A stretch of DNA of 41,798 bases. Source: a virus. Under the pieces are notes generated by a model. That model worked only from the letters and a program-made list of their open reading frames with translations, made no database searches and was not told the DNA's origin. Position 1 is the stretch's first letter. Each line of letters starts with the position of its first letter. Made by a program: the position numbers and the translations under genes. Location: positions 1 through 41,798 of IMG/VR virus record IMGVR_UViG_3300045988_016066. The stretch is one strand, 5' to 3'. Of the stretch, positions 719 to 21,771 are shown piece after piece.

Positions 719-1221
719 TTCCATGTCCCTCCTGCTTTGAATTTTGCCACGGCGTCCTTCCATCCGCTGCCGGTCTTGACCTTGACTTGCGCGGGCTTCC
801 ATCCGCCGCCGGTTTTTATATAAACCGTCGCGCCGTGCAGCGCGGGGGCGGTAAAGGTCGCGGTTTGAACAGCTACCACGTTGTTCACGCAGCCGACCTT
901 TGCGGCTATCGTTACGCCCTCGCCAGCATCACCTACGAAATAGAACGTTGTCGTGCCCTTTGATACGGCGAAGGACGTGTCCTCCGTTCCGGTAACGTCG
1001 CCAATGTCGCACCGGAGCTTCCATTTCTCCGGAGGGTAATACGTCCCGTAGCTGCCGTCGCCGCTCGTCAGCTCGGCTTTGACAGCAAATTGTCTGCCGT
1101 TCAGTCGTGCGATATGAAGCGTTCCGGAAAGGCTCCAATGGTTCGCTCTTCCATAAATGCTTTTTTCCTGCTCCCAAGCGCTGCCGCCTGGAAGCTCCGG
1201 CGCTGTCTGTGACCATGCCAT
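715..1221 (-). CDS. Tail-fibre module protein with C-terminal GGxWK repeats (receptor-binding accessory?)
   Basis: 168-aa ORF. Its stop overlaps the endolysin ATG (ATGA). C-terminus is YIKTGGGWKPAQVKVKTGSGWKDAVAKFKAGGTWK. The role is inferred from position only. Confidence 0.55.
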   Translation of the reverse strand: MAWSQTAPELPGGSAWEQEKSIYGRANHWSLSGTLHIARLNGRQFAVKAELTSGDGSYGTYYPPEKWKLRCDIGDVTGTEDTSFAVSKGTTTFYFVGDAGEGVTIAAKVGCVNNVVAVQTATFTAPALHGATVYIKTGGGWKPAQVKVKTGSGWKDAVAKFKAGGTWK

Positions 1222-1231
1222 TCAGATCACC

Positions 1232-2434
1232 TCACTCCGAATACATGAGATAAATATCCCCGTCGCTGCCGAGCTCGGCGCCCGGCTCCGTCGTTCCGGC
1301 GTAGATGTGCCGCACCTGATCGGCGGAAAGGCCGAACTTCGTATACGGAATATCGTTCGCGAGCTTCTCGGCGGTCACGGCGTTCGGCGCGAGCAGCGCC
1401 GTCGTGATGGCAAGCCCCAAAATCTTCGCTGTCGTAACCACCCCGTCGCCAAGATTCGCGGTGCCGACCGCACCCGGCGCGTCAGACAATGCGCCCAGAT
1501 TTGCCCGCGCCCCCGCCGCGTCCTTCGCGCCCGTGCCGCCGGAATCAACGGGCAGCGCCGTGGTTTTAAAGGCCGCGCGGATTTTTGACACGATGTTAGA
1601 CCAAGGGGTTTTCCGATTCAGCGATACGGAAACATCATAGAACGGGAAATAGTCCCCGTCCGCAAGCGTCGCTTCTGCGGCAAGATCTTTTGTCGCCGCC
1701 TGTTTCGCTTCAATCGCATCCGGAATCGTAGTTTCATCGTCTGCGCTAACGTGGATATCGTCGCCGGTTAACGTCACGTTGCCGGAGGCGTCCGGCGATT
1801 TCGTGTTCACTGACACGACAGAGCCGGAGCCGTTCATGCCGTTATAGACGGGGAATGTGGTAAACTCCCCATTGTAGAACGTGATTTTGTATGTGTCAGT
1901 CGTACCGGCGGCGTGTGTGCCGCTTTGCAGCGTAATGGACGCTATACCGTTGCCGTTCTTTACGTTAAACGTGGAGGTCGTTCCGTCCGTGAGCGTAACG
2001 GTGTAGGTGTCCGTCAAGCCGCTCGTTCCGGTTTTGGCAATGCTCTTGATGGATGAACCGTTTGTCACGGTAAAGTTGGTGCTTGTGTTATCCGAGAACG
2101 AGATTTTGTAAGTGTCCACAAGACCGGACGTGCTGATTTTTGCAACACTTGTGATTGCCCGACCATCCGTTCCCTTGTCGCCCTTTGCGCCGGTCGCGCC
2201 GCGTACCGAGGTCGTCTTTACCTCCGTATCGTCAGCCATGATAAACGTCAGGGTATAGTCATCGTTTAGGGTAATGCTCTTAATGCCGCCATGACCGTCA
2301 AGAGCCGTTGCAAGGTCGTTGATAAGCACCTGCCCGGTCAGGGACTTTGCCTGTCCTGCCTGTTCCATAACAAACAGGTCTGTCGTTGTCACGGTTGATG
2401 CTCTCGGAAGCTCGCCTACTGTTTTGTCCGCCAA
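1232..2434 (-). CDS. Tail fibre / receptor-binding protein
   Basis: 400 aa with a TTG start 6 nt after AAGGAGGGC. Has a short collagen-like GATGAKGDKGTDG and three ~35-aa repeats (I.S[IV]AK..TSGL.DTY.[IV].[FL].D.T.T.F.V.NG). It is the last large gene of the tail module. Confidence 0.75.
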   Translation of the reverse strand: MADKTVGELPRASTVTTTDLFVMEQAGQAKSLTGQVLINDLATALDGHGGIKSITLNDDYTLTFIMADDTEVKTTSVRGATGAKGDKGTDGRAITSVAKISTSGLVDTYKISFSDNTSTNFTVTNGSSIKSIAKTGTSGLTDTYTVTLTDGTTSTFNVKNGNGIASITLQSGTHAAGTTDTYKITFYNGEFTTFPVYNGMNGSGSVVSVNTKSPDASGNVTLTGDDIHVSADDETTIPDAIEAKQAATKDLAAEATLADGDYFPFYDVSVSLNRKTPWSNIVSKIRAAFKTTALPVDSGGTGAKDAAGARANLGALSDAPGAVGTANLGDGVVTTAKILGLAITTALLAPNAVTAEKLANDIPYTKFGLSADQVRHIYAGTTEPGAELGSDGDIYLMYSE

Positions 2435-2832: not shown

Positions 2833-4067
2833 GCCCTGTTTCCTCTCTTCAAAACAATGTGTTGAACGCCGCTTTTATCTGTGATTGTGTCCCAAAAAGA
2901 ATAGTAATTCTGGAAAACCAACGTTCCTGCTTTCACGTAGCCTGCCTTTGCATAACCGACACTTAACGCTCCGGTTGAAAAGTCGCTGAAATCATATCCG
3001 TTTGCTAACCCTGTATTTATCCAGTTGTTTGTGTTGGCAGAGGTTATTGTTCCTCCGCCTATCTGACCGCCGGATATGTATCCCGCATACTCTCCATTTT
3101 GCGTGCCGGTTTGAATGCGATTTGCAAACACATTCCCGGTGAACGTTCCGTCCGTTGCGTATAGTTGGCCGTAGCTGTTTACGCGGAATTTGCCGCCGCC
3201 GAGGGCGATGCCATCTGTCCCGATGTACACACCGTCCACCGTCCCGTACAGTTCCGACAGCTTGTTATATATGGCGTTCTGTGTGATAGTAAACCCGCTG
3301 TCTTTGCTTCCAATGAACCCGGATGTTGCCGTTATCTTGCCGGTGATGTCTACACCGTCTTTCGTCGCCCTGAACACTTCCTGCCCGGAGCTTTCCAGAA
3401 CAAACCCGTCCGCCGTCAGCGACCAACCAAAAGAGGCGGAATTGCCGCCGGTCTGCGTCACTCTCGCGGCGATCTCCTGCGCGTGCAGTTCCAATGCCGC
3501 CCGCATTTCCGCTTCGCTTGCTTCCCTGGCTGTGACCTCTGCCTGAATGCTCGCGGCATTAACTCTAAGGCTTGCTCGTGTCTCGGCAAACTGCCGTTTG
3601 GTTTTACGGTCGGCAGGAGATTTATATGGGTACTCGTGGTCAACCGCGTTCTCCTGCGGTGCGGAGATACGCGCCGCCATCATCGTGGAGAAATTGGTTT
3701 CTTTTACATAGATGCCGGAAAAAACGCCGTTAATGGTAACGCCGTCGCCAAGCTCCGCCGCAGGGTCAAGCTTCGCCCATTCTGTGTCATACGGACGATA
3801 GACAAATTCCCTGATGCTCTCTAAGATGTCGTTTGCCATCTGTTGAGAACCCCACGGGCAGTCAAGCTCTAAGACGTTGTCCCCGCGCCCAGCCTCATAG
3901 TAGGAATCGTCGTCCACGTTGATGCGGACTTTTGTATACTTCGGAAGTTCGGGTGTCGTTGTGTATCCCTTTGCGCTTCTTCCGACAAAAACCGATTCAG
4001 ACAAGGATTCTGTCACCTCCGAACGTGAGGACATACCCGGCAGTATCCACGAGATAGTGCGTCTCAA
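2829..4067 (-). CDS. Tail-tip / baseplate structural protein (central coiled coil, Gly-rich C-terminal part)
   Basis: 412-aa ORF with coiled coil RASLRVNAASIQAEVTAREASEAEMRAALELHAQEIAARV. The more likely start is TTG at 4004 (GGAGGTG 9 nt upstream) rather than 4067. Confidence 0.7.
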   Translation of the reverse strand: MRRTISWILPGMSSRSEVTESLSESVFVGRSAKGYTTTPELPKYTKVRINVDDDSYYEAGRGDNVLELDCPWGSQQMANDILESIREFVYRPYDTEWAKLDPAAELGDGVTINGVFSGIYVKETNFSTMMAARISAPQENAVDHEYPYKSPADRKTKRQFAETRASLRVNAASIQAEVTAREASEAEMRAALELHAQEIAARVTQTGGNSASFGWSLTADGFVLESSGQEVFRATKDGVDITGKITATSGFIGSKDSGFTITQNAIYNKLSELYGTVDGVYIGTDGIALGGGKFRVNSYGQLYATDGTFTGNVFANRIQTGTQNGEYAGYISGGQIGGGTITSANTNNWINTGLANGYDFSDFSTGALSVGYAKAGYVKAGTLVFQNYYSFWDTITDKSGVQHIVLKRGNRA

Positions 4068-4767
4068 CGCCGATTTCGTTTAGCCGGACAAGATGGAGCT
4101 TTCCATCGTCTGACATGATGAAGTTTCCGGCATACATCGCGGCAATATACCCGAGGATTTCCCGCATGGCATACCCTCCGGGATACTGCACCGGATACCC
4201 GCGCTGCATGATGTCAAACGTGCGTGCATCGACCTCCACGCCCATATGCCCAGCAACAAGGCTTACAACATCAATGTCCGTTTTTGGCCATTCGCCGATG
4301 TCCCCATTCACGGGAAAATCGTTCTCGGCCTTCAACATCGCGTCGTATCCGTGGAATACGATTTCGTCCGTGCTCTCTCCGTCGGAGCGCGTGTCTATAT
4401 AGAAAACGCCCTTCGGTATCCACTCGCTTTCCTTCGTGTCATTCACGGCACGGATAAACGGCTTGATGGAGGACATTCTCTTGATCGTCGCCGTCGGCTT
4501 TACCATCGTGACATCGATTTCCGCGGCTACACAGCACCCGACCATCGGCTTGTCGTCCGTGAAAAGGTGCTGCGTGGTCTTGATCTCTTTGAGCATGTTC
4601 CCGCCGTATCCGCCGGAATCGGAATCGTAATAAATCCTCGTCCCGCCAAACGTGATATAATCGGCGTGCTCATCGATCAAATAAAACTCGTCGCCGATGA
4701 CGAGCTTGTTCTCGAACCAATGCGTACCGGCGACGATTTCCTTGTAGGTTGCGCTTGTGTTCTGCAT
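3997..4767 (-). CDS. Tail-tip protein (Tal/hub position)
   Basis: 256-aa ORF, second gene after the tape measure. Assignment is by position. Confidence 0.6.
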   Translation of the reverse strand: MQNTSATYKEIVAGTHWFENKLVIGDEFYLIDEHADYITFGGTRIYYDSDSGGYGGNMLKEIKTTQHLFTDDKPMVGCCVAAEIDVTMVKPTATIKRMSSIKPFIRAVNDTKESEWIPKGVFYIDTRSDGESTDEIVFHGYDAMLKAENDFPVNGDIGEWPKTDIDVVSLVAGHMGVEVDARTFDIMQRGYPVQYPGGYAMREILGYIAAMYAGNFIMSDDGKLHLVRLNEIGVETHYLVDTAGYVLTFGGDRILV

Positions 4768-7289: not shown

Positions 7290-7829
7290 TCACGTCCATT
7301 TCTTCAACATTTCTTCGTCCTCTGCCGTGTACTTCGTCGGTATTGTTACTAAGTCCCGATTCTGCCGCAGCCATTCCCGCTCGTATTTTTCGAGCTTTTT
7401 GCCTTTGGCAAGTTTCGAGCGCAGCGACACGATTTGCGAGAATGCGCAGTCCCCGCCTATCTCCATGTACGCACCCATGAACGTCCACCAATGGAGATAT
7501 TCGACCGAGCGGCATTCGTAGCCGAGAACACGGTTGACCGGCGCGACGATATATGGGAAGTCCTTTTCCCAGTCTACAAGACGGGCTGATTTCGTCCCGT
7601 GCGGCTGTCCGAGGTCGATGAACCAGAAGCACTTCTCCAATGCTTCCGAATAGTCCGTCAGTGTTTCCCAATCGGGAAAAATCGTCTGTATTGTCGCCTC
7701 CGCCTTATCCGCATCGGAAAAATCAGGGTCATTCAAGACCTCTATGAGATCGAGAATAACCCTGTAATCCGAGCGTATCGCATGGTCTGCACCGCCGACG
7801 GAAAGCGACATCGGCAGGGAGTAGATCAT
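7290..7829 (-). CDS. Tail assembly protein, phage Gp15-family-like (T-like partner of the chaperone pair)
   Basis: 179 aa, MIYSLPMSLSVGGADHAIRSDYRVILDLIEVLNDPDFSD. Has an ATGA overlap with the upstream chaperone. Its frame is open for 17 codons upstream of its ATG. Confidence 0.65.
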   Translation of the reverse strand: MIYSLPMSLSVGGADHAIRSDYRVILDLIEVLNDPDFSDADKAEATIQTIFPDWETLTDYSEALEKCFWFIDLGQPHGTKSARLVDWEKDFPYIVAPVNRVLGYECRSVEYLHWWTFMGAYMEIGGDCAFSQIVSLRSKLAKGKKLEKYEREWLRQNRDLVTIPTKYTAEDEEMLKKWT

Positions 7830-8245
7830 TTCTTGAATTTTGCGAGATACTTTTGCAGCTTCGGATTCGTCTTTTTCTTTTCAGCCGTAAAGGTATCGTT
7901 CATGTTGTCGATGAGGCAGAGCATCAGGTTGCACCACACGGGCAGACCGTCCGCCATCGCGTAGGTGTTCATCGTGCCATACAGGGGAGTGCAAACGTCA
8001 AAGCCGAAAAGACCGTTGATAAGCTCTCGCATCTCCCCGTCCATCGCACGGGCGGCAGCAAAGATTTTCTTCGCGTCGTTCTCCCCGGCGAGCATCGCCT
8101 GGTATTTGTCCTGCTGCTTGTCCATCGCGTCAAACGCATTAAAAACGCGCTCGATAAAGTCAATGTCGGTGAGGTTGAGCAACACCGTCACCTTTCCGTT
8201 GATGGAGATTTCCTGTACTCCGGTATCATGTCTAAGTTCAAGCAT
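7826..8245 (-). CDS. Tail assembly chaperone (G-like)
   Basis: 139-aa acidic ORF between the major tail and tape measure genes. Confidence 0.65.
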   Translation of the reverse strand: MLELRHDTGVQEISINGKVTVLLNLTDIDFIERVFNAFDAMDKQQDKYQAMLAGENDAKKIFAAARAMDGEMRELINGLFGFDVCTPLYGTMNTYAMADGLPVWCNLMLCLIDNMNDTFTAEKKKTNPKLQKYLAKFKK

Positions 8246-8263
8246 TGCTTAACCTCCTGAAAA

Positions 8264-8773
8264 TTAGGTCTCCGGCGTAAACTCGATAGCGCCGCTAGTG
8301 CCCTTCGTGGCCGTGCCCTTCGTGCGCTTGCCGCCGTAGGTCACATTGATGGGCATTCCGACGCTGCCGCCGCCCTCACCGCCGAGACCAGTGACCTCGA
8401 CCATGCAGGATTCGTAGCGCTCGGCGAATCCAGCGTAAGTGTGGACGATGAGCATGTCCATAGCCGCAAGCGCCATCGCGTCCTGATCGACAACGGCGAG
8501 CTTCCAAATCTTCTGCTGCGCCGCGTCGCCGCTGTCCAGCTCGCACGGCTCGAAAGACTGCGTAATGACAGGCTTCTTCATCGTGCCGTAGGTATCGCCG
8601 AGAATGTCTTTCTTGCTCTCGGTAGACCAGTCGTATTCCTCGGAGCTGTCCTCCACGCGCTTGCCGATCACCGACCAAACAGGAGCGGAACTCGTGCCGG
8701 TATTCAGATAAGCGAGAAGCAGCTCACGCGCCACAGTCTGCCCCGCAGTAGTGGTAAACGTGTATTCAGCCAT
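8264..8773 (-). CDS. Major tail protein
   Basis: 169 aa, MAEYTFTTTAGQTVARELLLAYLNTGTSSAPVWSVIGKRVEDSSEEYDWS. Sits in the canonical position upstream of the chaperone pair. Confidence 0.7.
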   Translation of the reverse strand: MAEYTFTTTAGQTVARELLLAYLNTGTSSAPVWSVIGKRVEDSSEEYDWSTESKKDILGDTYGTMKKPVITQSFEPCELDSGDAAQQKIWKLAVVDQDAMALAAMDMLIVHTYAGFAERYESCMVEVTGLGGEGGGSVGMPINVTYGGKRTKGTATKGTSGAIEFTPET

Positions 8774-8776
8774 TCG

Positions 8777-9226
8777 TTAAATCACCTCGTAAATTAAAGT
8801 TAAGAGGATCTGGTGATCCTCTATGTCTCCCTCGTATCTGGCAAAAAGAGCCGCCGCCGTGTCGCGTTTGACCTTGCGCACGCGGATACCGTCCGCAATC
8901 GTCAGACTGCCCGCGTTTGCCTCTGCCCACGCGCCGTATGCATCCAGCACCTCATCCGCGCTCATTCTCTCGTCTGCGTTCTTCGCCGGGACGCGATAAA
9001 TAAGTTTGAACTGGTACTGTGCCTGATACGAGCCGTCGATAAACTGCTTGGTTTTGTACGCCGCCTGAATGGTAGATATACATAAACCGCTTTTCTCACC
9101 CAGCCATTCAAAGTCAAGCTTGGAAAGCGGCTTATCCGGGTACGCATTCAGCCATTGCCGAACGGCGCGGCTCACGTCTGCATTTTCTTCCGCAGACACT
9201 AAAGTTTTAGGTTTTTTCTCATCCAA
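8777..9226 (-). CDS. Head-tail joining / tail completion protein
   Basis: 149-aa ORF, third of four small genes between the capsid and major tail genes. Confidence 0.6.
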   Translation of the reverse strand: MDEKKPKTLVSAEENADVSRAVRQWLNAYPDKPLSKLDFEWLGEKSGLCISTIQAAYKTKQFIDGSYQAQYQFKLIYRVPAKNADERMSADEVLDAYGAWAEANAGSLTIADGIRVRKVKRDTAAALFARYEGDIEDHQILLTLIYEVI

Positions 9227-12477: not shown

Positions 12478-13710
12478 TTATTTATTGGCCGCTTTCTGCG
12501 CCTCTCGCGCTTCTTTCGGCCCGAACTCTGCGATGTTTCCGCGCTCGTATTGTGGCCGCAATCCTGCCGCCTTGCTGAAAGCCTCGTATTCCTCGTTTAG
12601 ACGACGATACCGCACAGCCTTTGTGGTATACTCCTCATCGTCTCCGCGCCCCTTGGCGGCTATCAGCTCTCGTTTAACTTTACGCAGGGACGCTTCGACC
12701 TGTCTCTGCTTTTGTGTCGCCTCGTAAAAGGTGTATTGCTTGCCTTCAAACTCAAAAGGCGGCGGGTCGATGTTCTCCAATTCCTCATCGGTGTATGTCC
12801 GCTCGGAAACGCCCTCAATCCAGATGTGGTACATATGGCGGCAGTTAGCGCCACACAAGCCGTCCACCTCGTCAAGACCGCAGACCTCATATATAGACGG
12901 GTAAATATCGCCGGTACGGACGGAATAAATGCGCCCCTGCCATTTCTTGTGGCTCGCCCATGGCGTTTTACCCTCTCCATCTCGTGCCCCACGGTGCGCC
13001 GTAACCTCTCTGTACGGAGTGTCAAGCAACGTCGCCGTCTGCTCCGTGTACTGCCGGGAAAGCTGGGTAACGCCCGTCATAACAGCTCTGCGGGCGGCAA
13101 CGTCAACGCGGTTATGCCAGCCGGATTCATAGTCAACGTACTGCAAGCCGCTGTCCGTCAGCATCTTAGTTGCATCGCGGATCGCCACGTTATAGCTCTG
13201 CCCGCTCTCCACGCGCATCAAGGCGTCGTCAAGCACGCGCTGGTACATCCTTCCTATATCATCGACCTTTACCGTACCGTCCGGCGCTCTGTACGCAAAG
13301 CCCATGCTGCGGGTAATGTTCGTCAGTTCTCCGAGCGTCTGCATCTCGATAGCCCGTATCTCCTGCATGAACAGGTCGGCATTGAAATTGTTTTCGCCGA
13401 GAATAAGGTTGTCGTCGATCAGCGTATCAAAATACTGCTGGTTTCGTTGGACAGCCTTGTTCCATACGGTGTCAAACTCGCTCTGCGTGAGCTTTAGGGT
13501 CTTTTGGATATACTCATTGATTTTCTTGTAATCGTATCCCCGCCGCTGCAAAGACCGTATATGCTCTATCGCCGTCTCCGTCATTTCTCCGGTCATGGCA
13601 ACACGGGAGCATATGTCCTCAAGGATTTGCTCTTCTAAACGCTGATATAGCCGCATAAGCGGCAGGGGCAGGGAGTACATAAACTCCGGCGTGATTGGAT
13701 ATTTTGCCAT
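12478..13710 (-). CDS. Minor capsid / head morphogenesis protein (Phage_min_cap2-like, SPP1 gp7/MuF position)
   Basis: 410 aa, directly after the portal gene with a 1-nt overlap. Motifs: ...GWHNRVDVAARRAVMTGVTQLS...VTAHRGARDGEG...GLCGANCRH. Confidence 0.8.
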   Translation of the reverse strand: MAKYPITPEFMYSLPLPLMRLYQRLEEQILEDICSRVAMTGEMTETAIEHIRSLQRRGYDYKKINEYIQKTLKLTQSEFDTVWNKAVQRNQQYFDTLIDDNLILGENNFNADLFMQEIRAIEMQTLGELTNITRSMGFAYRAPDGTVKVDDIGRMYQRVLDDALMRVESGQSYNVAIRDATKMLTDSGLQYVDYESGWHNRVDVAARRAVMTGVTQLSRQYTEQTATLLDTPYREVTAHRGARDGEGKTPWASHKKWQGRIYSVRTGDIYPSIYEVCGLDEVDGLCGANCRHMYHIWIEGVSERTYTDEELENIDPPPFEFEGKQYTFYEATQKQRQVEASLRKVKRELIAAKGRGDDEEYTTKAVRYRRLNEEYEAFSKAAGLRPQYERGNIAEFGPKEAREAQKAANK

Positions 13711-15125: not shown

Positions 15126-16700
15126 TTATGCTTTCACTCCGTACAATCTGAAAACTTTCTCGAGCGCATAGCGCGTGCTGTCTATGGTGTGGTTGTCCTT
15201 GTCCGGGTATCCGCTTATCACATTTCCGTCCCGGTCTCGCTCAAATTCGTAATTTACAAACTCTCGGTAAACCGTCGGCGTCCTCTCCGGGTCAATAATG
15301 AGTTTTCGGTTTTGTAACCACTTCATCCCGTACTCGACGCTCCCCGGCCCCTTGATTGCCGAAAAAGCGTTTACACCGCTCGCCCGGAAGTCCGCAACGC
15401 TCTTCGGCTCCGCGCTATCGCAAGTCACGGGGAAATCGTCATATCCTCGGCTCTTTATCCACTCGGCATTGTCCGCGTTGCTCGTCTTGTTGTTGCAATG
15501 CTCATCAATAAAATATATCGTCTCATGCGCTACATCATAATGAACACGCACAAAGGCGAAAATGTCCGGGTAATATCCCCAGTCAACGCCTTGGTATATC
15601 CGGTCGAAGTGCTTTATCTCGTCGTCCGTTATCCGTCTTGCCTCTATGTTATCAAAAACGTTGCCGCCGTCGCCGTTCGGGATGCCGAGATATTCATGCT
15701 CGTATGCCGACGGATTAACCTCTTTCAGATGTTCAGCGTCGTTGAGAAACATCGTTCCGAGCCATTCGGCGGGAGCGTCCATATAGGTCGAGTGATGGAC
15801 AATGCGGTTTTTGTCCGGCTCTAAAAGCTGCTGATTCACCCAGTTTGCGCGGCTCTTTGGCGGGTTGTACGATCCGAAGAAATAGGAATCTACACCGCCG
15901 CGGAGTACCGATTGCTTAACGCTTCGTTCTTCTGCTGCACCGGCGAGCTGGTCTCGTTCCTCTATCCAGAGAATCCCTATATACCCGAATGGCGGCTTTA
16001 TTGATTTCAGCTTTACCGGATCGTCGCAACCTCGAAAATAAATCTTTTGCCCGGTCTTCTTGAGCGTGATCTCCGGCGGGTGGGTTTTGAAATCAAACTC
16101 GTTAGAAATCCCCATCTCGTTTATCGCCCATTGGATTTGAGAAAACACACTGTCCTTTAACGTGTTCGTCTGCTTTCGCACAACACAGGCGTGCATCATG
16201 GGGTTGTTTTTCAAAAGCTCCGTGAGCTTTTCCGATATATACGTCGATTTCAAGCCGCCGCGTCCGCCCTCAAAGATATAGTCCTTGTTCGGCTCGATCT
16301 GCCGGTTGATGTCAACAAACGCCTTGCCGATAAGGTCAGCGGGAATCCTGCACGGCTTATCCTCTGCCGCTGCGTCGTTTGTCCAGTTTTCCCACCGGTC
16401 AACAGCTCTGTCATCGCCGCTTATCGCCTTGCCGTATACGCCAGCGACAATGGCGGCATTACATGTCATATCCTCGTCGTCTATTGCAAGCCCTGTCCGC
16501 TGAATCTGCCCTTTCAGCTTTTCCGGCGCGGGCTGCTGCGCTATCGACTTTGCGAGGCTTGCAAGGCTCTTGTTAGCCCTCTTGGTCTCGCCTGAGGCTA
16601 TGCCGCCCTTTCGTCCATTTCTCGCGGCTTTCTCGCGGCTTTGATTCGCCGTGAACGCGTTCTTTTTTAAGTTCTCGTCCTGTTTGGGATTGCGTGGCAT
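15126..16700 (-). CDS. terL: Terminase large subunit (PBSX/Terminase_3-like) with ~110-aa TerS-like N-terminal extension
   Basis: Walker A is FEGGRGGLKS; also ...LWIEERDQ and a C-terminal nuclease region. N-terminus MPRNPKQDENLKK...NGRKGGIASGETKR...AIVAGVYGKAISGDDRAVDRW resembles small-terminase N-termini. Confidence 0.9.
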   Translation of the reverse strand: MPRNPKQDENLKKNAFTANQSREKAARNGRKGGIASGETKRANKSLASLAKSIAQQPAPEKLKGQIQRTGLAIDDEDMTCNAAIVAGVYGKAISGDDRAVDRWENWTNDAAAEDKPCRIPADLIGKAFVDINRQIEPNKDYIFEGGRGGLKSTYISEKLTELLKNNPMMHACVVRKQTNTLKDSVFSQIQWAINEMGISNEFDFKTHPPEITLKKTGQKIYFRGCDDPVKLKSIKPPFGYIGILWIEERDQLAGAAEERSVKQSVLRGGVDSYFFGSYNPPKSRANWVNQQLLEPDKNRIVHHSTYMDAPAEWLGTMFLNDAEHLKEVNPSAYEHEYLGIPNGDGGNVFDNIEARRITDDEIKHFDRIYQGVDWGYYPDIFAFVRVHYDVAHETIYFIDEHCNNKTSNADNAEWIKSRGYDDFPVTCDSAEPKSVADFRASGVNAFSAIKGPGSVEYGMKWLQNRKLIIDPERTPTVYREFVNYEFERDRDGNVISGYPDKDNHTIDSTRYALEKVFRLYGVKA

Positions 16701-16712
16701 GCCCTCCCTCCC

Positions 16713-16744
16713 TTGAAAATGAAAAAGCCGCGTAATGCGGCTTT
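16713..16744 (-). terminator. Intrinsic terminator 12 nt upstream of the TerL start codon
   Basis: Minus strand reads AAAGCCGC-attac-GCGGCTTT followed by ttcattttc. Only the RBS gggagggaggg separates it from the ATG at 16700. Confidence 0.8.
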
Positions 16745-16748
16745 GCTG

Positions 16749-17111
16749 TTATTTTTTGTACTTGTACCACGGCGATTTCTTTGTCGCCGCGTCTATGTTT
16801 CTATCTTCCCACCATTTAAGGTCTTTTTGCGCTTCTTTCGTCCTGCCGTTAAGCAAGTGTCTTGTCGCGCTGTATACAAGATCGTAATACAAGCGGTCTT
16901 GGCTGTACCGGGAATCGGCATAACGAATGTAAGCATCGGTAGCCCCGTAAAGTGCTTTCGTCGTTTCCGGCTTTGCCGTTATCTCGCCGTCTTTTATCGC
17001 TTTGTAAATCGTTCCCGCTTCTTTTCGGGTGATTTATCCGTGTTTATACGGTGTGTATTCTACTTTATCGCGCTTCGGAGAAATCCCGCTTGACGCCCCA
17101 CGCCCGCCCAT
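16749..17111 (-). pseudogene. Third MGGRGAxSG-family gene, interrupted by an in-frame TAA after codon 25
   Basis: ATG at 17111 gives MGGRGASSGISPKRDKVEYTPYKHG, then TAA at 17036..17034. The same frame stays open for 94 further codons with no Met (ITRKEAGTIYKAIKDGEITAKPE...WWEDRNIDAATKKSPWYKYKK) up to the TAA at 16751..16749. Confidence 0.6.
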
Positions 17112-17127
17112 TTTGTCACACCCTTCG

Positions 17128-17166
17128 TAAAATAAAATTCGCCGTTCTGAATTATCAAAACGGCGA
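17128..17166 (-). terminator. Intrinsic terminator after the second MGGRGAxSG gene
   Basis: Minus strand reads TCGCCGTT-ttgataattcag-AACGGCGA followed by attttatttta. The loop and tail also contain a possible TTGATA-18-TATTTT promoter. Confidence 0.65.
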
Positions 17167-17248
17167 TTGCTATTAAATTAAATAAAATGGCAAGCGGGCG
17201 GATTTCAACCGCCATCTCCGCTTTCGCGGCGTTTTCACTCGTAAACTA

Positions 17249-17641
17249 CTACTTGCCGCTTCTATTATTCCACACGCTTTTTACCCTGTCAACCAGCTTC
17301 TTTTCTTTTGCGCTCAGTTTCTTGGTTCCATGTTCATCATGGATGTAACCGTAGTGTGTATGCTCTTTTTCGCTCTTGCCATCGATAAAGTGCGGTTGCC
17401 CATTAAGGTCAATCGTTTTATATCGTTTGTTCTCTTTGTCGTAAAAAGAAATAAATTTTATTACATCCAGCCTGTTAACCGTAACGTATATGCGTCTTCT
17501 CGTCTGCGTCTCAAGCGGAGCTGTTGCACTGCCGGAAAGCTGGTATTTTACAAACTTAATGTTTCCATCCTGCAATATCGTTTTGTACTCGCTGCCGTAT
17601 GGGTGCTTTCCTGTGCCGCTTGCTGCGCCTCTGCCGCCCAC
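17249..17641 (-). CDS. MGGRGAxSG-family protein 2 (130 aa), function unknown
   Basis: GTG start overlapping the upstream TAG by 1 nt. MGGRGAASGTGKHPYGSEYKTILQDGNIKFVKYQL...HTHYGYIHDEHG. Confidence 0.75.
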   Translation of the reverse strand: MGGRGAASGTGKHPYGSEYKTILQDGNIKFVKYQLSGSATAPLETQTRRRIYVTVNRLDVIKFISFYDKENKRYKTIDLNGQPHFIDGKSEKEHTHYGYIHDEHGTKKLSAKEKKLVDRVKSVWNNRSGK

Positions 17642-17952
17642 TAACTAAACCTCTCCACCAGTTTCTTTTTTGCCAACCGAACGCGGCGGCGCTGCGCCAT
17701 CAAAGCGCGCATATCTCCGTCTTTAACGTCGCCTCGCTGTATGGCGCTGATCTCCGATTGCACGGAAGTCTCGAAATCCTGCACGCCTTTGTATACGGCC
17801 TGAACCTGTCTATCCGTTTTTGCGCTTTGAGCCGCTTTAACAAGCCTATCAGCTCTTTCCGTCACTCCGGGATAATGCCATTTGCCGCCGCTCTTCGTCC
17901 GCGGAAACTGCACAATATTTGATACTCCGCTGCTCGCTCCACGTCCGCCCAT
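17641..17952 (-). CDS. MGGRGAxSG-family protein 1 (103 aa), function unknown
   Basis: ATG overlaps the ParB-like gene stop by 1 nt. MGGRGASSGVSNIVQFPRTKSGGKWHYPG..., with a helical basic C-terminus. Confidence 0.75.
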   Translation of the reverse strand: MGGRGASSGVSNIVQFPRTKSGGKWHYPGVTERADRLVKAAQSAKTDRQVQAVYKGVQDFETSVQSEISAIQRGDVKDGDMRALMAQRRRVRLAKKKLVERFS

Positions 17953-18974
17953 CAGCTTTTCCCTCCGAATCTCTCCGTGTTATGGTTCGCAATGTAACTC
18001 ACTCCGCACGGGAATTTATATCCTATATCGCCGCCGTAACATACGACGTGCGACGGTTTCAACCGCTTTATTGCTTCTTCCATTCCGGCGAACCATATAC
18101 CACCGGCGTTTTTATCGCGCTTTACGCCTATCGTACTAACCGAAACTACACCGCCCGGCTCTATGCCGTCAAAGCAGAAATCAAAGCTCCGTTCGTCCGC
18201 CCATTGCAACGTGGGTATAACCGTTATGCCTGCGTCCTGCATGATCTGCCCGATCAACCGGGAGCGGTATACGTTCCATATCTGCATTGCAAGCGGCATA
18301 TCCAGATAAAGCGAAAAGTCCGGCGTGAGAACACAGTCGAACATACCCAGCTTATCAATATACTTGCCCGGCGTTGTCCATACTCTTTCAAATTGGTAAT
18401 CGTCGATATAGAAGTGTATGCCTTTGTCGTAGTCGTCGCTCGTGAGCATATAGTTAAAAGAGATCAAATCCTCCGGTATGTGGTCTGTTGCTTTCAATGT
18501 TGGCATGTCCCAATTGCCAGCGGCGCGTTCCGCGTCAAAATCGCGCAGATTCATTTTACTGTACGTCTTCTCTCGTTCGTCGCCGTAATAGCCGTCGTCC
18601 TCTTCTTCCTCCGGCTCATCGGCATAGCCGAGAAAACCGAGGTCAAGGCTCGGAAGCTCCAAGGATAGCATGTTCTTGTCAAAGCCGCTGTCCATCGTGG
18701 TCTTGTTGTGAGCGATGGTGTACTCCCGGCGCTGCTTGTCGGTCAGATGGTCGAGCCGTATGCACGGCGCTTCTTTTATCCCCATCTGCCGCAGGGCTTC
18801 AAATCTCCCATGGCCCTCTACAATGGTGTTAGATTTGCCCCATACAGCGATAGGGTCGTTCATTCCATACCGAGCGATGGATTCCTTGATCTCGTCGGTC
18901 TGCTCTTGCGGATGCTCTTTTGTGTTGTTGGCATACGGCTTTATCTCGTCCAGCCGCAGTGTGATTACTTCCAT
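17952..18974 (-). CDS. ParB-like N-terminal (nuclease/CTPase-fold) domain protein with DUF4417-like C-terminal domain
   Basis: LRLDEIKPYANNTKEHPQEQTDEIKESIARYGMNDPIAVWGKSNTIVEGHGRFEALRQMG (ParB N-domain). C-terminal IHFYIDDYQFERVW...VLTPDFSLYLDMPLAMQIWNVYRSRLIGQ. Start set at the ATG at 18974, because the ORF-track GTG at 19040 lies inside the terminator stem. Confidence 0.75.
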   Translation of the reverse strand: MEVITLRLDEIKPYANNTKEHPQEQTDEIKESIARYGMNDPIAVWGKSNTIVEGHGRFEALRQMGIKEAPCIRLDHLTDKQRREYTIAHNKTTMDSGFDKNMLSLELPSLDLGFLGYADEPEEEEDDGYYGDEREKTYSKMNLRDFDAERAAGNWDMPTLKATDHIPEDLISFNYMLTSDDYDKGIHFYIDDYQFERVWTTPGKYIDKLGMFDCVLTPDFSLYLDMPLAMQIWNVYRSRLIGQIMQDAGITVIPTLQWADERSFDFCFDGIEPGGVVSVSTIGVKRDKNAGGIWFAGMEEAIKRLKPSHVVCYGGDIGYKFPCGVSYIANHNTERFGGKS

Positions 18975-19022
18975 CTCCGCCGCCCCCTCCGCTGCGTACG
19001 GCTTTCCCGCCTCTCGGCTTCG

Positions 19023-19082
19023 CCCAAAATAAAAAGCCACGCTTTGGCGCTCGGTGATCGTCCGGCGTCTCTGCGTGGCTTT
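19023..19082 (-). terminator. Leader hairpin plus U-tract immediately downstream of the putative late promoter
   Basis: Minus strand reads AAAGCCACGC-(30 nt)-GCGTGGCTTT followed by ttattttggg. It begins about 4 nt after the predicted transcription start. Confidence 0.55.
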
Positions 19083-19136: not shown

Positions 19137-19583
19137 TTATAGGTCAAACGAGCTGTATCTCGCGGTGCAGTAGCTCGACAATGCCCGTGTCGCCTTCTTC
19201 CAGACGGTCGTTTCGTCGATGATTCCAAGCTCGTCGCATAGCCGCTGCGAGCCATTTTTCTGCTTGTCGATGTACAAAACCTCAAGGATGCGCCGCTCAT
19301 CCTCAGTCAGCAACGCGAGCGCCTGCCGTGTGAGTTTGACGTCTTTCTCGGCAAACATCAGTTTGTCTTTCAGCGCGTCAACAGTAACGATGCTGTTGTT
19401 CATGCGTTCCTCATACGACGTGCCGCCGCCCTGCACCGGGGCCGTCCCCGTGGATGCGCTCTTGATGGATGTCATGCGCTCGCGCTCCATGTTGATCTCC
19501 TCCGGTATGGACAATATCGCCGCCTCGTTTTTCCGTAGGTTGAACTGGTCAGCCTTGCATTTCATTTTCCAGAGTTCGTTCAC
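19137..19583 (-). CDS. Late transcription regulator, sigma-70 region-4-like (ArpU/RinA/DUF1492 class)
   Basis: 148 aa, GTG start after GAGGTGA. C-terminal ...TRQALALLTEDERRILEVLYIDKQKNGSQRLCDELGIIDETTVWKKATRALSSY is an HTH of the sigma r4 type. Sits just upstream of the late region. Confidence 0.6.
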   Translation of the reverse strand: MNELWKMKCKADQFNLRKNEAAILSIPEEINMERERMTSIKSASTGTAPVQGGGTSYEERMNNSIVTVDALKDKLMFAEKDVKLTRQALALLTEDERRILEVLYIDKQKNGSQRLCDELGIIDETTVWKKATRALSSYCTARYSSFDL

Positions 19584-21309: not shown

Positions 21310-21771
21310 TTATGCATTGTCACCGTCTCCAATCTCAAATCTTAATTTCATTTGCGCTGGATAAAGATCGACCTCTGGGCGACGCTTTCCCGTCCAGCGC
21401 AGACCGCCAGCTTGCCCAACGCATTTCCAACCAGCGGCCTTTAGGCTCACACCAGATTCCGTGTCCAGTATGTAAGTGACAAGCTTGTGATACCCCATGG
21501 CTCGCGCCGCTCTCCATGCTGCGGCATAGAGCATAGAACAAGCGTTGTGTGTACCGTCCGTACAAAGCCGATTGACCTCAAGTGTCCAGCCATCATCAAG
21601 CACACGGCTCACCGGTCGCCCAACAATGGCAACACCGACGATTTTCTCACCGTCTGTGCATCCAATCGAAAACTTGTGTCCAACGACAGGCTTGTGATGC
21701 CGATGGTTCTGCTCAACAAATGCGTTTGCCTCCTTCAAGGTCATCGGGCACACCTCAAGCATCGCTGTCAC
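21310..21771 (-). CDS. GNAT-fold-like small protein (XF1762-family-like)
   Basis: MTLKEANAFVEQNHRHHKPVVGHKFSIGC...IVGVAIVGRPVSR...EVNRLCTDG. The likely true start is the ATG at 21744 (GAGGTG 6 nt upstream). Confidence 0.55.
   Translation of the reverse strand: MTAMLEVCPMTLKEANAFVEQNHRHHKPVVGHKFSIGCTDGEKIVGVAIVGRPVSRVLDDGWTLEVNRLCTDGTHNACSMLYAAAWRAARAMGYHKLVTYILDTESGVSLKAAGWKCVGQAGGLRWTGKRRPEVDLYPAQMKLRFEIGDGDNA

Follow-up and report, generated by a model that had tools for sequence, protein, structure and literature searches.

A putative DUF4417-coupled polymorphic effector module with GGRG-tagged cargo beside a phage terminase gene

The internal proteins IPI-III and Alt of phage T4 share a short N-terminal peptide ahead of unrelated, small and basic bodies. 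This capsid-targeting sequence is a hydrophobic/acidic peptide of about 10 residues that the prohead protease removes at an L-x-E site. MuF polymorphic toxins (Zhang et al. 2012, PMC3482391; Jamet et al. 2017, PMC5576092) combine a constant phage module with variable toxins (ART, Tox-PL1, RNases) encoded beside terminase, portal and head genes. Their delivery by the head is predicted, and immunity genes are sometimes adjacent. The polyvalent proteins of Iyer et al. 2017 (PMC5512222) are single giant polypeptides of 2-15 effector domains, for which entry into the host together with the DNA is predicted as infection begins. DpdA works on DNA with the ParB-fold ATPase DpdB (PMC10164549). Leaders of the L27/Prp type, for which the site MLxx(D/N)LQ(F/L)F'A has been published (PMC9405229), also occur on the capsid and scaffold proteins of phage 80alpha (PMC9405229, PMC5744158).

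Here we analyse a stretch of viral DNA of 41,798 nucleotides (IMG/VR record IMGVR_UViG_3300045988_016066, positions 1 to 41,798), called the window below. A first-pass annotation had pointed to three tandem genes that share only an N-terminal MGGRGAxSG peptide and lie between a ParB-like gene and the terminase gene. We find that such tagged genes belong, together with DUF4417, to a module that is widespread in phages and apparently undescribed: no earlier description of a DUF4417–GGRG module was found in the literature searched.

The tagged genes of the window and their neighbours

The three genes lie on the minus strand. The first, g1 (17641..17952), starts with ATG and encodes a protein of 103 aa and pI 10.75 (N-terminus MGGRGASSGVSN) with a basic, helical-looking body; its tag codons 2-9 (GGRGASSG) occupy 17926..17949. 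The second, g2 (17249..17641), starts with GTG and encodes 130 aa with a pI of 9.82 (N-terminus MGGRGAASGTGK), the tag GGRGAASG being encoded at 17615..17638. The third, g3 (16749..17111), starts at 17111, its frame opens with MGGRGASSGISP, and its tag GGRGASSG is encoded at 17085..17108. A degenerate DNA pattern of the tag has exactly 3 matches in the window and none in 100 dinucleotide-preserving shuffles. The codons differ between the copies just as listed at first pass (in the order g1, g2, g3: Gly3 GGA, GGC, GGG; Arg CGT, AGA, CGT; residue 7 AGC, GCA, TCA). The overlaps of 1 nt were likewise confirmed, with TGATG joining the stop of the upstream ParB_N–DUF4417 gene to the start of g1 and TAGTG at the g1/g2 junction. 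The divergence of the bodies also stands: they have no detectable mutual similarity, and the tag-stripped sequences fall into separate blastp clusters.

All three tagged N-termini are thus present, but 16749..17111 is not an intact gene, because an in-frame TAA (17034..17036, minus strand), overlooked at first pass, interrupts it at codon 26. Two close relatives, L108 and L208, have CAA (Gln) at this codon and encode an intact protein of 120 aa; g3 of the window is therefore either a nonsense mutant (pseudogene) or the result of a sequencing error. The gene is also chimeric. L208 has a fourth tagged gene (135 aa), which the window lacks; the region upstream of g3 and the first ~18 nt of g3 correspond to that fourth gene, and the recombination junction lies inside the tag codons. 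The fourth cassette was lost in the window's own lineage by recombination inside tag-coding DNA.

The body of g2 is not unique: its family (f0; phrog_9479, E=6.9e-37) is the most frequent among the cargo, with 547 homologues and with R4, G5, G9 and H84/H94/H96/H101 invariant. This PHROG, a family without an assigned function, is its sole family match, and g2 matches nothing in Pfam or NCBIfam. The family of g1 is rare, and a homologue search returned near-identical proteins only. Searches of Pfam, PHROG and NCBIfam gave no family for g1 or g3 and no recognised toxin domain in any of the three. No candidate immunity gene was identified within the window. Structure prediction, which had been suggested for the bodies, yielded a model of g2 (pLDDT 77.7) with residues 1-11, which include the tag, disordered; a Foldseek comparison of this model with the PDB gave nothing significant (best, LolA-like proteins at E≈0.07), and a search of PDB sequences gave no match.

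The upstream gene (17952..19040, minus strand, 362 aa) is a ParB_N–DUF4417 fusion. It matches Pfam DUF4417 at E=1.4e-73; ParB_N is matched at E=6e-4, below the Pfam cut-off, along with several ParB-like PHROG families. At first pass this ParB-like gene was treated as mere context; it is the conserved partner of the tagged genes. Upstream of the module lies a DUF1492/ArpU-type late transcription activator (19137..19583, minus strand), which is syntenic in related loci. The downstream boundary is the large terminase TerL (15126..16700, minus strand; Terminase_3, Terminase_3C). A consensus scan, the only source for these elements, placed terminator-like hairpins on the minus strand between g2 and g3 (17139..17166, a 12-bp stem with a T-run) and between g3 and TerL (16724..16744). 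TerL carries a TerS-like N-terminal extension of ~120 aa (phrog_2412 on residues 8-110); comparable TerS-TerL fusions occur in locus L001, and TerS of relatives is either separate or fused to TerL. The idea that a small tagged gene is the small terminase was dropped, as the TerS-like segment is already fused to the TerL of the window. The annotated head genes that lie between portal and capsid code for a minor capsid protein and for a scaffold-like protein, with no sign of a prohead protease. A gene of the Mom family/XF1762 family elsewhere in the window is a further candidate DNA-modification gene.

The GGRG tag, its cargo and DUF4417 in related phages

The survey of the tag and its linkage covered about 200 related loci overall. 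At 120 viral loci, at least 20 blastp-unrelated protein families share an N-terminus of (M)GGRG and then small residues, and many of these loci hold tandem tagged genes, 2-5 each. The first-pass view of a short N-terminal tag on polymorphic cargo beside packaging and head genes is borne out by these families. The tagged proteins are small and basic (pI 9.7-10.8). Among 231 unique genes, the third positions of tag codons 2-5 have an entropy of 1.5-1.76 bits and the tag Arg is encoded by AGN in 124 and by CGN in 107. Conservation at the level of the peptide, proposed from the three copies of the window, thus extends to the whole set; selection acts on the tag peptide, while its synonymous sites vary freely. 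GGRG is retained both in Firmicutes phages and in high-GC actinophages, and also internally, after leaders or in fusions.

Twelve related cargo genes encode a leader of about 9-10 residues, M..(D/N)(L/I)Qx(F/L), that ends exactly before GGRG, and one metalloprotease family has members both with and without a leader at this place. Leaders that end exactly at GGRG, taken with the disorder of the tag, point to an exposed N-terminus. In some cargo GGRG is internal, after a domain of ~80 aa or in a fusion to DUF4417, so that not all cargo has the tag at a free N-terminus unless processing exposes it in these cases. In actinophage cargo the tag is followed by Gly-rich disordered linkers of ~75 aa. 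The tag resembles the mature L27 N-terminus, the TerL Walker A motif (GGRGGLKS) and a TerS-like KGGxASG motif, as a resemblance only. For many tagged genes the start codon is wrongly placed in public records (e.g. A25 gp23, D29 gp2 and Gordonia phage Anon gp2), and a literature search with the string MGGRG returned nothing relevant.

The cargo of relatives includes toxins above Pfam thresholds, such as ADPrib_exo_Tox in Trixie gp2 and the Gln_amidase/Tox-PL1 glutamine deamidase in Luchador gp2; the toxin Pfams above cut-off are PF03496, PF15644, PF00545 and PF15535. HExxH metalloproteases also occur among the tagged proteins, and family f5 gives a weak ART-PolyVal/PARP signal. IPP54 gp32 was considered as a JAMM protein on account of an HxHx7SxxD-like motif and dropped, as it has no Pfam match. 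In mycobacteriophage Echild, a gene that its annotator labelled "immunity protein" adjoins a cargo gene. The toxin and effector domains of relatives are in line with the early guess of host-takeover or anti-defence factors; no recognised toxin domain is present in g1, g2 or g3.

A database search for the tag and its neighbourhood, as first proposed, showed that the widespread tag tracks DUF4417. DUF4417 lies on the same strand in 85 of 98 loci ascertained through the tag (median gap 78 nt), and a same-strand tag ORF is found in 75 of 80 genome loci ascertained through DUF4417. The f0 family of g2 is present in only 35 of these 80 loci. Two different gene orders both keep DUF4417 and the tagged genes together. 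In most lineages the two lie inside the packaging/head operon; in LilDestine, a mycobacteriophage of cluster J, tRNA genes surround the pair, which is ~10 kb from the right end and off the annotated head genes. Furthermore, DUF4417 is fused in one ORF to an MGGRGSGGG-cargo (P0341), to barnase (PF00545), to Ntox37 (PF15535) and to an f2-like body, with a Gly-rich junction in each case.

DUF4417 comprises 3,892 clusters at 50% identity and includes gene 1 of D29/L5-type mycobacteriophages. Existing annotations of its members include "DNA modification methylase" and "nuclease", and none of the papers found that mention the family assigns it a function. The ParB_N–DUF4417 protein of the window was predicted with a pLDDT of 91.8. 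With Foldseek, the top non-self PDB fold for the DUF4417 model was TGT (prob 0.85-0.96) and the top BFVD matches were phage DpdA-like proteins (prob about 1.0), at TM values of about 0.5-0.55 and E of 2e-3 to 1e-1. Homology to TGT at the sequence level was looked for and not found: the DUF4417 profile matched no PDB sequence at E≤10, and hhalign against E. coli TGT gave a probability of 0.14. We therefore claim the relation to TGT and DpdA as a fold resemblance only. Conserved acidic and polar residues of DUF4417 are H39, D43, D44, D71, S73, Y75 and D121.

Candidate roles of the module

The reading to which we give slightly better than an even chance is a polymorphic effector system coupled to DUF4417, with g1, g2 and the broken g3 as variable cargo delivered with the DNA or the capsid. 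The constant part would be the ParB_N–DUF4417 protein, encoded immediately upstream of the cargo genes, and the variable part 1-5 small, basic and mutually unrelated proteins, each starting with the disordered (M)GGRG tag. The tag would serve as the handle or junction by which DUF4417 recognises or couples its cargo, probably by physical contact and perhaps through a free N-terminus. DUF4417 would in this way be the counterpart of MuF or of the other N-terminal trafficking domains of polymorphic toxins. Judged from its model, it may be a DNA-acting barrel of the TGT/DpdA type joined to a ParB-type NTPase. The late packaging/head operon setting and the look of a DNA-acting barrel make loading for delivery the most likely purpose: the effectors or toxins would be loaded with the phage DNA or capsid and carried to the next host. 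In favour of this reading are the tag on unrelated bodies and its conservation as a peptide, the reciprocal linkage to DUF4417, the fusions, the toxin cargo, the signs of an exposed N-terminus, the fold of DUF4417 and the loss of a cassette within tag DNA. Counting against it are the Str01 virion proteome discussed below, the LilDestine pair away from annotated head genes, a TGT/DpdA likeness confined to structure, the lack of a recognised toxin domain in g1-g3 and of an identified immunity gene in the window, and the cargo with internal GGRG.

A covalent version of such coupling, in which DUF4417 is a TGT/DpdA-like transglycosylase powered by the ParB-type NTPase and uses the Gly amine or the invariant Arg of the tag as nucleophile, seems to us rather unlikely. 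The cargo would be linked to the phage DNA or to DUF4417 itself, and the conjugates would travel with the genome. Two independent structure libraries give TGT/DpdA as the nearest fold, DpdB/DpdA is a precedent for pairing a ParB fold with a TGT-like one, and the conserved DUF4417 residues named above sit at strand ends as in barrel enzymes. It would also suit this proposal that the g2 family never varies at R4, G5 and G9, that the leaders end exactly before GGRG and that the DUF4417–cargo fusions allow both parts to work as one polypeptide. However, the proposal is purely inferential and sequence-level homology to TGT is absent. We know of no enzyme of the TGT fold that takes a protein as the incoming nucleophile, and a folded protein attached to DNA must pass the portal channel or stay outside it. 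Its narrower form, a minimal transglycosylase that joins the exposed GGRG either to the DNA of the phage or to the C-terminus of DUF4417 itself so that the cargo is dragged into the capsid and injected, is also improbable. If true, covalent coupling would be a new route of protein delivery and a new protein–nucleic-acid linkage.

The first-pass annotation had proposed, by analogy, a capsid-targeting or cleavage tag of the T4 kind. The scaffold or prohead core would recognise the tag, a protease would perhaps clip it, and DUF4417, for instance as a nuclease or an enzyme of DNA modification, would merely happen to be encoded next to it. The position in the packaging/head operon of most lineages, the small basic proteins (pI 9.7-10.8), the tag disordered in the g2 model and effector-type cargo like the packaged ARTs and MuF toxins (PMC9503650) all suit it. 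Against it, the tag follows DUF4417 and no particular head gene: both gene orders keep the pair, the cluster J pair lies away from the annotated head genes, and DUF4417–cargo fusions occur. In addition, the tag is Gly-rich and contains no site of the L-x-E type, and the annotated head genes of the window include no prohead protease. The virion presence that this tag was expected to confer found no support in an existing proteome of Streptococcus phage Str01, in which the g2 homologue APZ81907 and DUF4417 are both missing from the 12 proteins listed, a weak negative; the virion proteome of the cluster J phage Omega covers left-arm structural proteins only and was not counted as evidence on the module. 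We consider a T4-like role unlikely.

Alternatively, the tagged proteins could, instead of being delivered, assist a DUF4417 enzyme of DNA modification or anti-restriction as its regulatory subunits, specificity subunits or pseudo-substrates. The enzyme-like character of DUF4417, its fusion to ParB_N and its occasional annotation as "DNA modification methylase" or "nuclease" would suit such a role; the f0 family is conserved with its four-His cluster as a fixed subunit would be, and the Mom-family/XF1762-family gene is another candidate for DNA modification. ART, barnase, Ntox37 and Tox-PL1 would make poor specificity subunits, however; f0 is found in fewer than half of the DUF4417 loci (35/80), and several unrelated partners occur in one phage, so that we hold this role to be quite unlikely.

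Very doubtful is the proposal that the proteins are bacteriocin-like toxins freed at lysis to attack neighbouring cells, with the tag and Gly-rich linker as import segment (compare the disordered N-termini of colicins) and DUF4417 as a maturation helper. Polymorphic-toxin domains, the annotated immunity gene of Echild, the ~75-aa linkers of actinophage cargo and a late expression that would fall together with lysis are in line with it. It is opposed by the lack of a receptor-binding domain and by the small, linker-free proteins of the window, and it leaves unexplained both the strict pairing with a ParB-fused protein that resembles a DNA enzyme and the position by the packaging genes. Finally, a nucleic-acid role of the tag DNA, as a linker at which cassettes recombine or a G-rich element of translation initiation, would fit the cassette deletion in the window lineage and the G-rich composition near the ribosome-binding site, but is made extremely improbable by nearly unconstrained synonymous positions, about equal Arg codon classes and a motif kept from Firmicutes phages to high-GC actinophages and at internal sites after leaders or in fusions.

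The module gives a functional context to a large family without an assigned function and accounts for hundreds of "hypothetical" small genes by the terminase in gut, streptococcal and actinobacterial phages. N-terminal GGRG beside DUF4417 is a simple rule for finding phage effectors and toxins, and the module is directly testable in tractable phages such as D29, L5 and A25. A tag that proved to be a portable loading signal could serve to bring chosen proteins into phage particles, and coupling that proved covalent would represent new biochemistry.

Comparison with described systems

As in T4, a short common N-terminal peptide precedes unrelated small basic bodies encoded among late genes; injection with the DNA is only suspected here. 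In contrast to the T4 sequence, the tag is rich in Gly, Arg and Ser, lacks L-x-E, apparently persists at the N-terminus of the mature protein and varies together with DUF4417 and not with head proteins. The 12 leader-bearing cargo genes match the published P-side motif of the L27/Prp site directly before the tag, and cleavage there is predicted; the P1' residue is Gly (GGRG) and not Ala-Ser or His-Lys-Lys, and no such leader is found in g1, g2, g3 or any other protein of the window.

The pairing of a TGT-like and a ParB-like fold in the ParB_N–DUF4417 protein may be seen as a parallel, by analogy, to DpdA with DpdB. The two parts are fused in the window and the likeness is one of fold only. 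The neighbours of DUF4417 are tagged proteins and not base-synthesis genes, and no preQ0-synthesis gene turned up in the annotated part of the window.

The polyvalent proteins also bring a ParB-type domain together with ART, zincin metallopeptidase and other effector domains. Their single giant polypeptides would here be "split", mostly into separate small tagged genes; the parts are separate genes in the window, and only in certain relatives are DUF4417 and one toxin joined in a single protein. DUF4417 is not mentioned in the passages searched of Iyer et al. 2017 (PMC5512222).

With the MuF toxins the module shares a constant part with variable toxins, a location beside terminase, portal and head genes, a predicted delivery by the phage head and, at times, a neighbouring gene annotated as immunity gene. 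The constant part differs, being DUF4417 (with or without ParB_N) plus a GGRG tag of 5-9 residues; the system is mostly divided over separate genes, and one phage has several cargos. The MuF analogy drawn at first pass does not extend to the proteins themselves: g1-g3 have no MuF domain, and the MuF-like PF06152 minor capsid protein of the window (12478..13710) is a separate gene free of any toxin. In the passages searched of Zhang et al. 2012 (PMC3482391), DUF4417 is not given as a trafficking mode and Ntox37 is listed with T2SS and T7SS only; neither the tag nor a link to DUF4417 is mentioned in the passages searched of the surveys on polymorphic toxins, polyvalent proteins and NAD/ADPr. The general definition of polymorphic toxins in Zhang et al. 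2012 describes a constant module with variable bodies, and here one tag precedes at least 20 unrelated bodies and fusions occur. Recognised toxin families are found above Pfam cut-offs in the relatives and not in g1, g2 or g3. Recombination at the junction of conserved and variable parts, a further mark of polymorphic toxins, is seen in the window itself, where the crossover of g3 falls within the DNA of the tag.

Tagged genes of the window and the interrupted g3

Five consecutive minus-strand genes encode, in this order, a protein fusing ParB_N to the Pfam family DUF4417 (17952..19040, 362 aa), the tagged proteins g1 (17641..17952, 103 aa, ATG start), g2 (17249..17641, 130 aa, GTG start) and g3 (16749..17111), and the large terminase, TerL (15126..16700). 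The first-pass annotation had described three tandem genes sharing only an N-terminal nonapeptide. The tag is indeed present on all three (g1 MGGRGASSG, g2 MGGRGAASG, g3 MGGRGASSG), but g3 is not intact: an in-frame TAA, overlooked in that annotation, occupies codon 26 (17034..17036, minus strand). Its other observations were confirmed. The nonapeptide is encoded by different codons in each copy, 1-nt overlaps join DUF4417 to g1 (TGATG) and g1 to g2 (TAGTG), and the tag-stripped bodies have no mutual similarity. Scanning with a degenerate DNA version of the tag gave three matches in the window and none in 100 shuffles. All three products are basic (pI 10.75, 9.82 and 9.67 for g1, g2 and g3).

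Codon 26 of g3 is CAA in close relatives, the loci L208 and L209 recovered via g1, where four tandem tagged genes lie 3' of ParB-DUF4417: g1, g2, a 135-aa gene and an intact 120-aa g3. The region upstream of the window g3 and its first ~18 nt match the 135-aa gene of L208, and the match then switches to the g3 of L208 (recombinant 5' end at 17085..17131, minus strand; counterpart L208 3842..4611). Recombination within tag-coding DNA has therefore deleted one cassette in this lineage. Cassette deletion would have come first, followed by a nonsense codon in the surviving g3, unless the latter is a sequencing error. Terminator-like hairpins lie on either side of g3 (17139..17166 and 16724..16744, minus strand), and a strong sigma-70-like promoter match (11/12, extended -10) is found inside the 3' end of g2 (17264..17292, minus strand); transcription or attenuation of g3 may be separate from that of g1-g2.

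The g2 protein belongs to the commonest tagged family (547 homologues, phrog_9479 match), in which four histidines are invariant. Its predicted fold is beta-rich with residues 1-11 disordered, and neither sequence nor fold searches found relatives in the PDB. The homologue search with g1 returned near-identical relatives only. A g2-family gene is also present in a decayed prophage remnant kept on 22 contigs (L003-L005, ~7786..8862); it has fragments of DUF4417, the TerL N-terminus and a minor capsid gene on its flanks and directly adjoins a type I-C CRISPR-Cas locus.

Association of the tag with DUF4417

Viral contigs were scanned with the degenerate tag pattern, the first 120 matching loci (a biased sample) were taken, and simple rules served to call tag ORFs. 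This search found the tag on unrelated bodies in at least 120 viral loci. In nearly all tag-bearing ORFs of the 120 loci a start codon lies immediately 5' of GGRG; many loci carry 2-5 tandem tagged genes, and stripping the tag leaves at least 20 families unrelated by blastp, ~80-260 aa long. Conservation centres on (M)GGRG and the small residues (A/S/G/T) that come after it, and in the g2 family it extends to G9.

A DUF4417 homologue was found in 85 of 98 tag-ascertained loci, in every case on the same strand, and the gap has a median of 78 nt and does not exceed 1 kb; in most of the other 13 the sequence ends near the tag gene. For the reverse test we used the best 80 DUF4417 matches as genome loci, a biased sample found without the tag, from bins of Firmicutes, Actinobacteria and Bacteroidales. 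The strict motif was present in an ORF at 43 of these loci, and a looser tag in an ORF on the DUF4417 strand at 75. The genes are arranged either as activator–ParB/DUF4417–tag genes–TerL–portal or as TerL–portal–tag genes–DUF4417–minor capsid protein, and DUF4417 and the tag genes stay together in both orders. The DUF4417 family comprises 3,892 clusters at 50% identity (E≤1e-3). No function is assigned to it in the searchable open literature, where the one mention of substance names ParB-CTPase–DUF4417 fusions among those enriched in phages, with role unknown (bioRxiv 10.1101/2025.10.10.680097).

The terminase P-loop, GGRG(S/G)xKS in the window, L018, L022, L053 and other loci, has GGRG in common with the tag and gave false positives in motif scans; this likeness is probably a coincidence. 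In the window TerL, Walker A lies at about residue 145 and reads YIFEGGRGGLKST. Residues 1-120 form an N-terminal extension of ~120 aa (phrog_2412) with the motif NGRKGGIASGETKR, which loosely resembles the GGRGASSG tag. Motifs of this type (KGGxASGxxRR) open separate TerS-like ORFs in related loci, which suggests that the window TerL is a TerS–TerL fusion.

Effector domains, fusions and leaders

Cultured phages with members of the g2 family and of DUF4417 are found among Streptococcus phages (A25, Str01, A1, phiST1 and phiNJ2) and Javan prophages, and further examples are Dorea phage DO134P1 and Roseburia phage Jekyll. The RefSeq start of A25 gp23 (L126, NC_028697, ~4001..4411) is nine codons late and hides the tag; the real ORF starts with MGGRGASSGMSDKG, and there is an overlap between it and the end of gp22, which encodes DUF4417. 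Hundreds of cluster A mycobacteriophages, D29 among them, and Gordonia phages also have DUF4417 as gene 1 (or 2). The following gene in these actinophages encodes MG(G/K)RG, a Gly-rich linker of ~75 residues and an effector domain at the end. Annotated starts that are too late omit tag and linker in D29 (L216, NC_001900, 1063..2097), Gordonia phage Anon (L217, 1071..1964), Echild (L219, ~1333..2358) and Trixie (L222, ~1178..2125), and an in-frame upstream start restores both. The domains are an ADP-ribosyltransferase in Trixie gp2 (PF03496, 67 bits), a Tox-PL1 glutamine deamidase in Luchador gp2 (PF15644, 47 bits), DUF3626 in D29 gp2 (PF12294, 30.9 bits) and, from a reading of the sequence and the annotator's label, an HExxH metalloprotease in Rahalelujah gp2 and Anon gp2; a Pfam search of Rahalelujah gp2 gave no match. 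The gene after the tagged cargo of Echild is labelled "immunity protein" by the annotator of the record. In D29, the extended gp2 and the acidic tail of gp1 share ~140 nt, read in different frames; either overprinting or a gp1–gp2 frameshift fusion could account for this.

A C-terminal extension of 60 residues or more is present in 19 of 267 DUF4417 proteins. In about 10 of the 19, a Gly-rich junction (GGRGSG, GMGSAG, GGGSAG or GGGSGS) leads into a cargo domain such as barnase (PF00545) or Ntox37 (PF15535), both above Pfam cut-offs, or a body of f2, one of the blastp families of tagged proteins. These gene fusions argue that DUF4417 functions as a unit with the tagged proteins; the tag is the counterpart of the DUF4417–cargo junction. 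A subset of DUF4417 proteins, represented by P0305, P0301, P0272 and P0344, has a ~95-aa C-terminal extension (…ENPGxI…DDWEDLxQExxLKSL…TWxxNF) that resembles a sigma factor or an ArpU-like region more than cargo.

Twelve related cargo genes encode a leader of 9-10 residues ending exactly at the GGRG boundary (for example MLKLDLQHF, MKIDLQLF, MRMNLQFF and MVMKINLQFF). These leaders fit the motif published for L27/Prp cleavage, MLxx(D/N)LQ(F/L)F'A(S/H)KK (PMC9405229). The leader-bearing loci are mostly from Firmicutes; the phyla with long L27 and Prp are Firmicutes, Tenericutes and Fusobacteria (PMC9405229). One metalloprotease family occurs in two forms, with GGRG preceded by Met alone or by a leader. 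Since Met removal is expected before Gly, both forms would start with GGRG. The leaders and the paired forms speak for an exposed N-terminus. The motif is internal in the DUF4417 fusions, and it follows an N-terminal domain of ~80 residues in some ~250-aa proteins encoded 3' of DUF4417 (Streptococcus phage IPP54, L224 3072..3818; downstream ORFs of L136, L169, L186 and L191). Internal GGRG counts against a universally exposed N-terminus; such proteins would have to be processed for the motif to become exposed. A string in IPP54 gp32, HNHPNGSNFSSTD, resembles a JAMM metalloprotease motif; a Pfam search of this protein gave no match.

DUF4417 fold and possible delivery of the tagged proteins

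The DUF4417 model (pLDDT 91.8) places invariant H, D, S, Y and W residues near strand ends. Foldseek against the PDB ranked tRNA-guanine transglycosylases (TGT) first (prob 0.85-0.96, TM ~0.55), and against BFVD it returned three self-family matches and then phage "queuine tRNA-ribosyltransferase" (DpdA-like; prob ~1.0, E ~2e-3). A profile search against PDB sequences and hhalign gave no sequence-level support for a DUF4417–TGT relation, so that the TGT/DpdA likeness offers a lead but falls short of a classification. DpdA puts preQ0 into DNA, aided by the ParB-fold ATPase DpdB (PMC10164549); the fusion of ParB_N to DUF4417 in the window is a suggestive parallel to this TGT-like and ParB-fold pair. 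The same phage carries a candidate DNA-modification gene (21313..21771, minus strand, 153 aa) matching the Pfam Mom family (E=5e-7) and the NCBIfam XF1762 family (E=2e-66).

We firmly place g1-g3 among the variable components of a set of tagged proteins coupled to DUF4417. The set behaves like a polymorphic toxin/effector system: its N-terminal element is conserved, its bodies are unrelated, relatives have toxin domains, and turnover proceeds by junction recombination. It would be a polymorphic effector system whose trafficking module is new; that new chemistry is involved has a small probability. The open-access text of the searchable literature yielded no account of the tag or of a DUF4417–cargo link.

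Covalent coupling is an unlikely alternative. That the tag is a pure capsid-targeting signal, close to what the first-pass annotation had proposed, seems distinctly unlikely. It is improbable that the tagged proteins are enzyme subunits, and there is only a slim chance that they are bacteriocins released at lysis. A signal in the DNA in place of a peptide function is scarcely credible: among 231 unique genes, entropy at the third positions of codons 2-5 is 1.5-1.76 bits and the tag Arg codons are divided between AGN (124) and CGN (107), a pattern indicating that selection on the tag acts at the peptide level.

For an effector set coupled to DUF4417, the purpose of the coupling would be delivery of the tagged proteins with DNA or capsid. 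The usual position in a late packaging/head operon, the basic cargo and the ParB-/DpdA-like features of the partner point to such delivery, as do the precedents of T4 internal proteins, polyvalent proteins and MuF toxins. Weak but real evidence against it comes from two phages. The Str01 virion proteome, in which 12 proteins are listed, contains neither the g2 homologue nor DUF4417 (PMC6195288). In the cluster J Mycobacterium phage LilDestine (L218 2402..3450), the DUF4417–tag pair is gp114/gp115 and lies among tRNA genes, ~10 kb from the right genome end and away from the annotated packaging/head genes.
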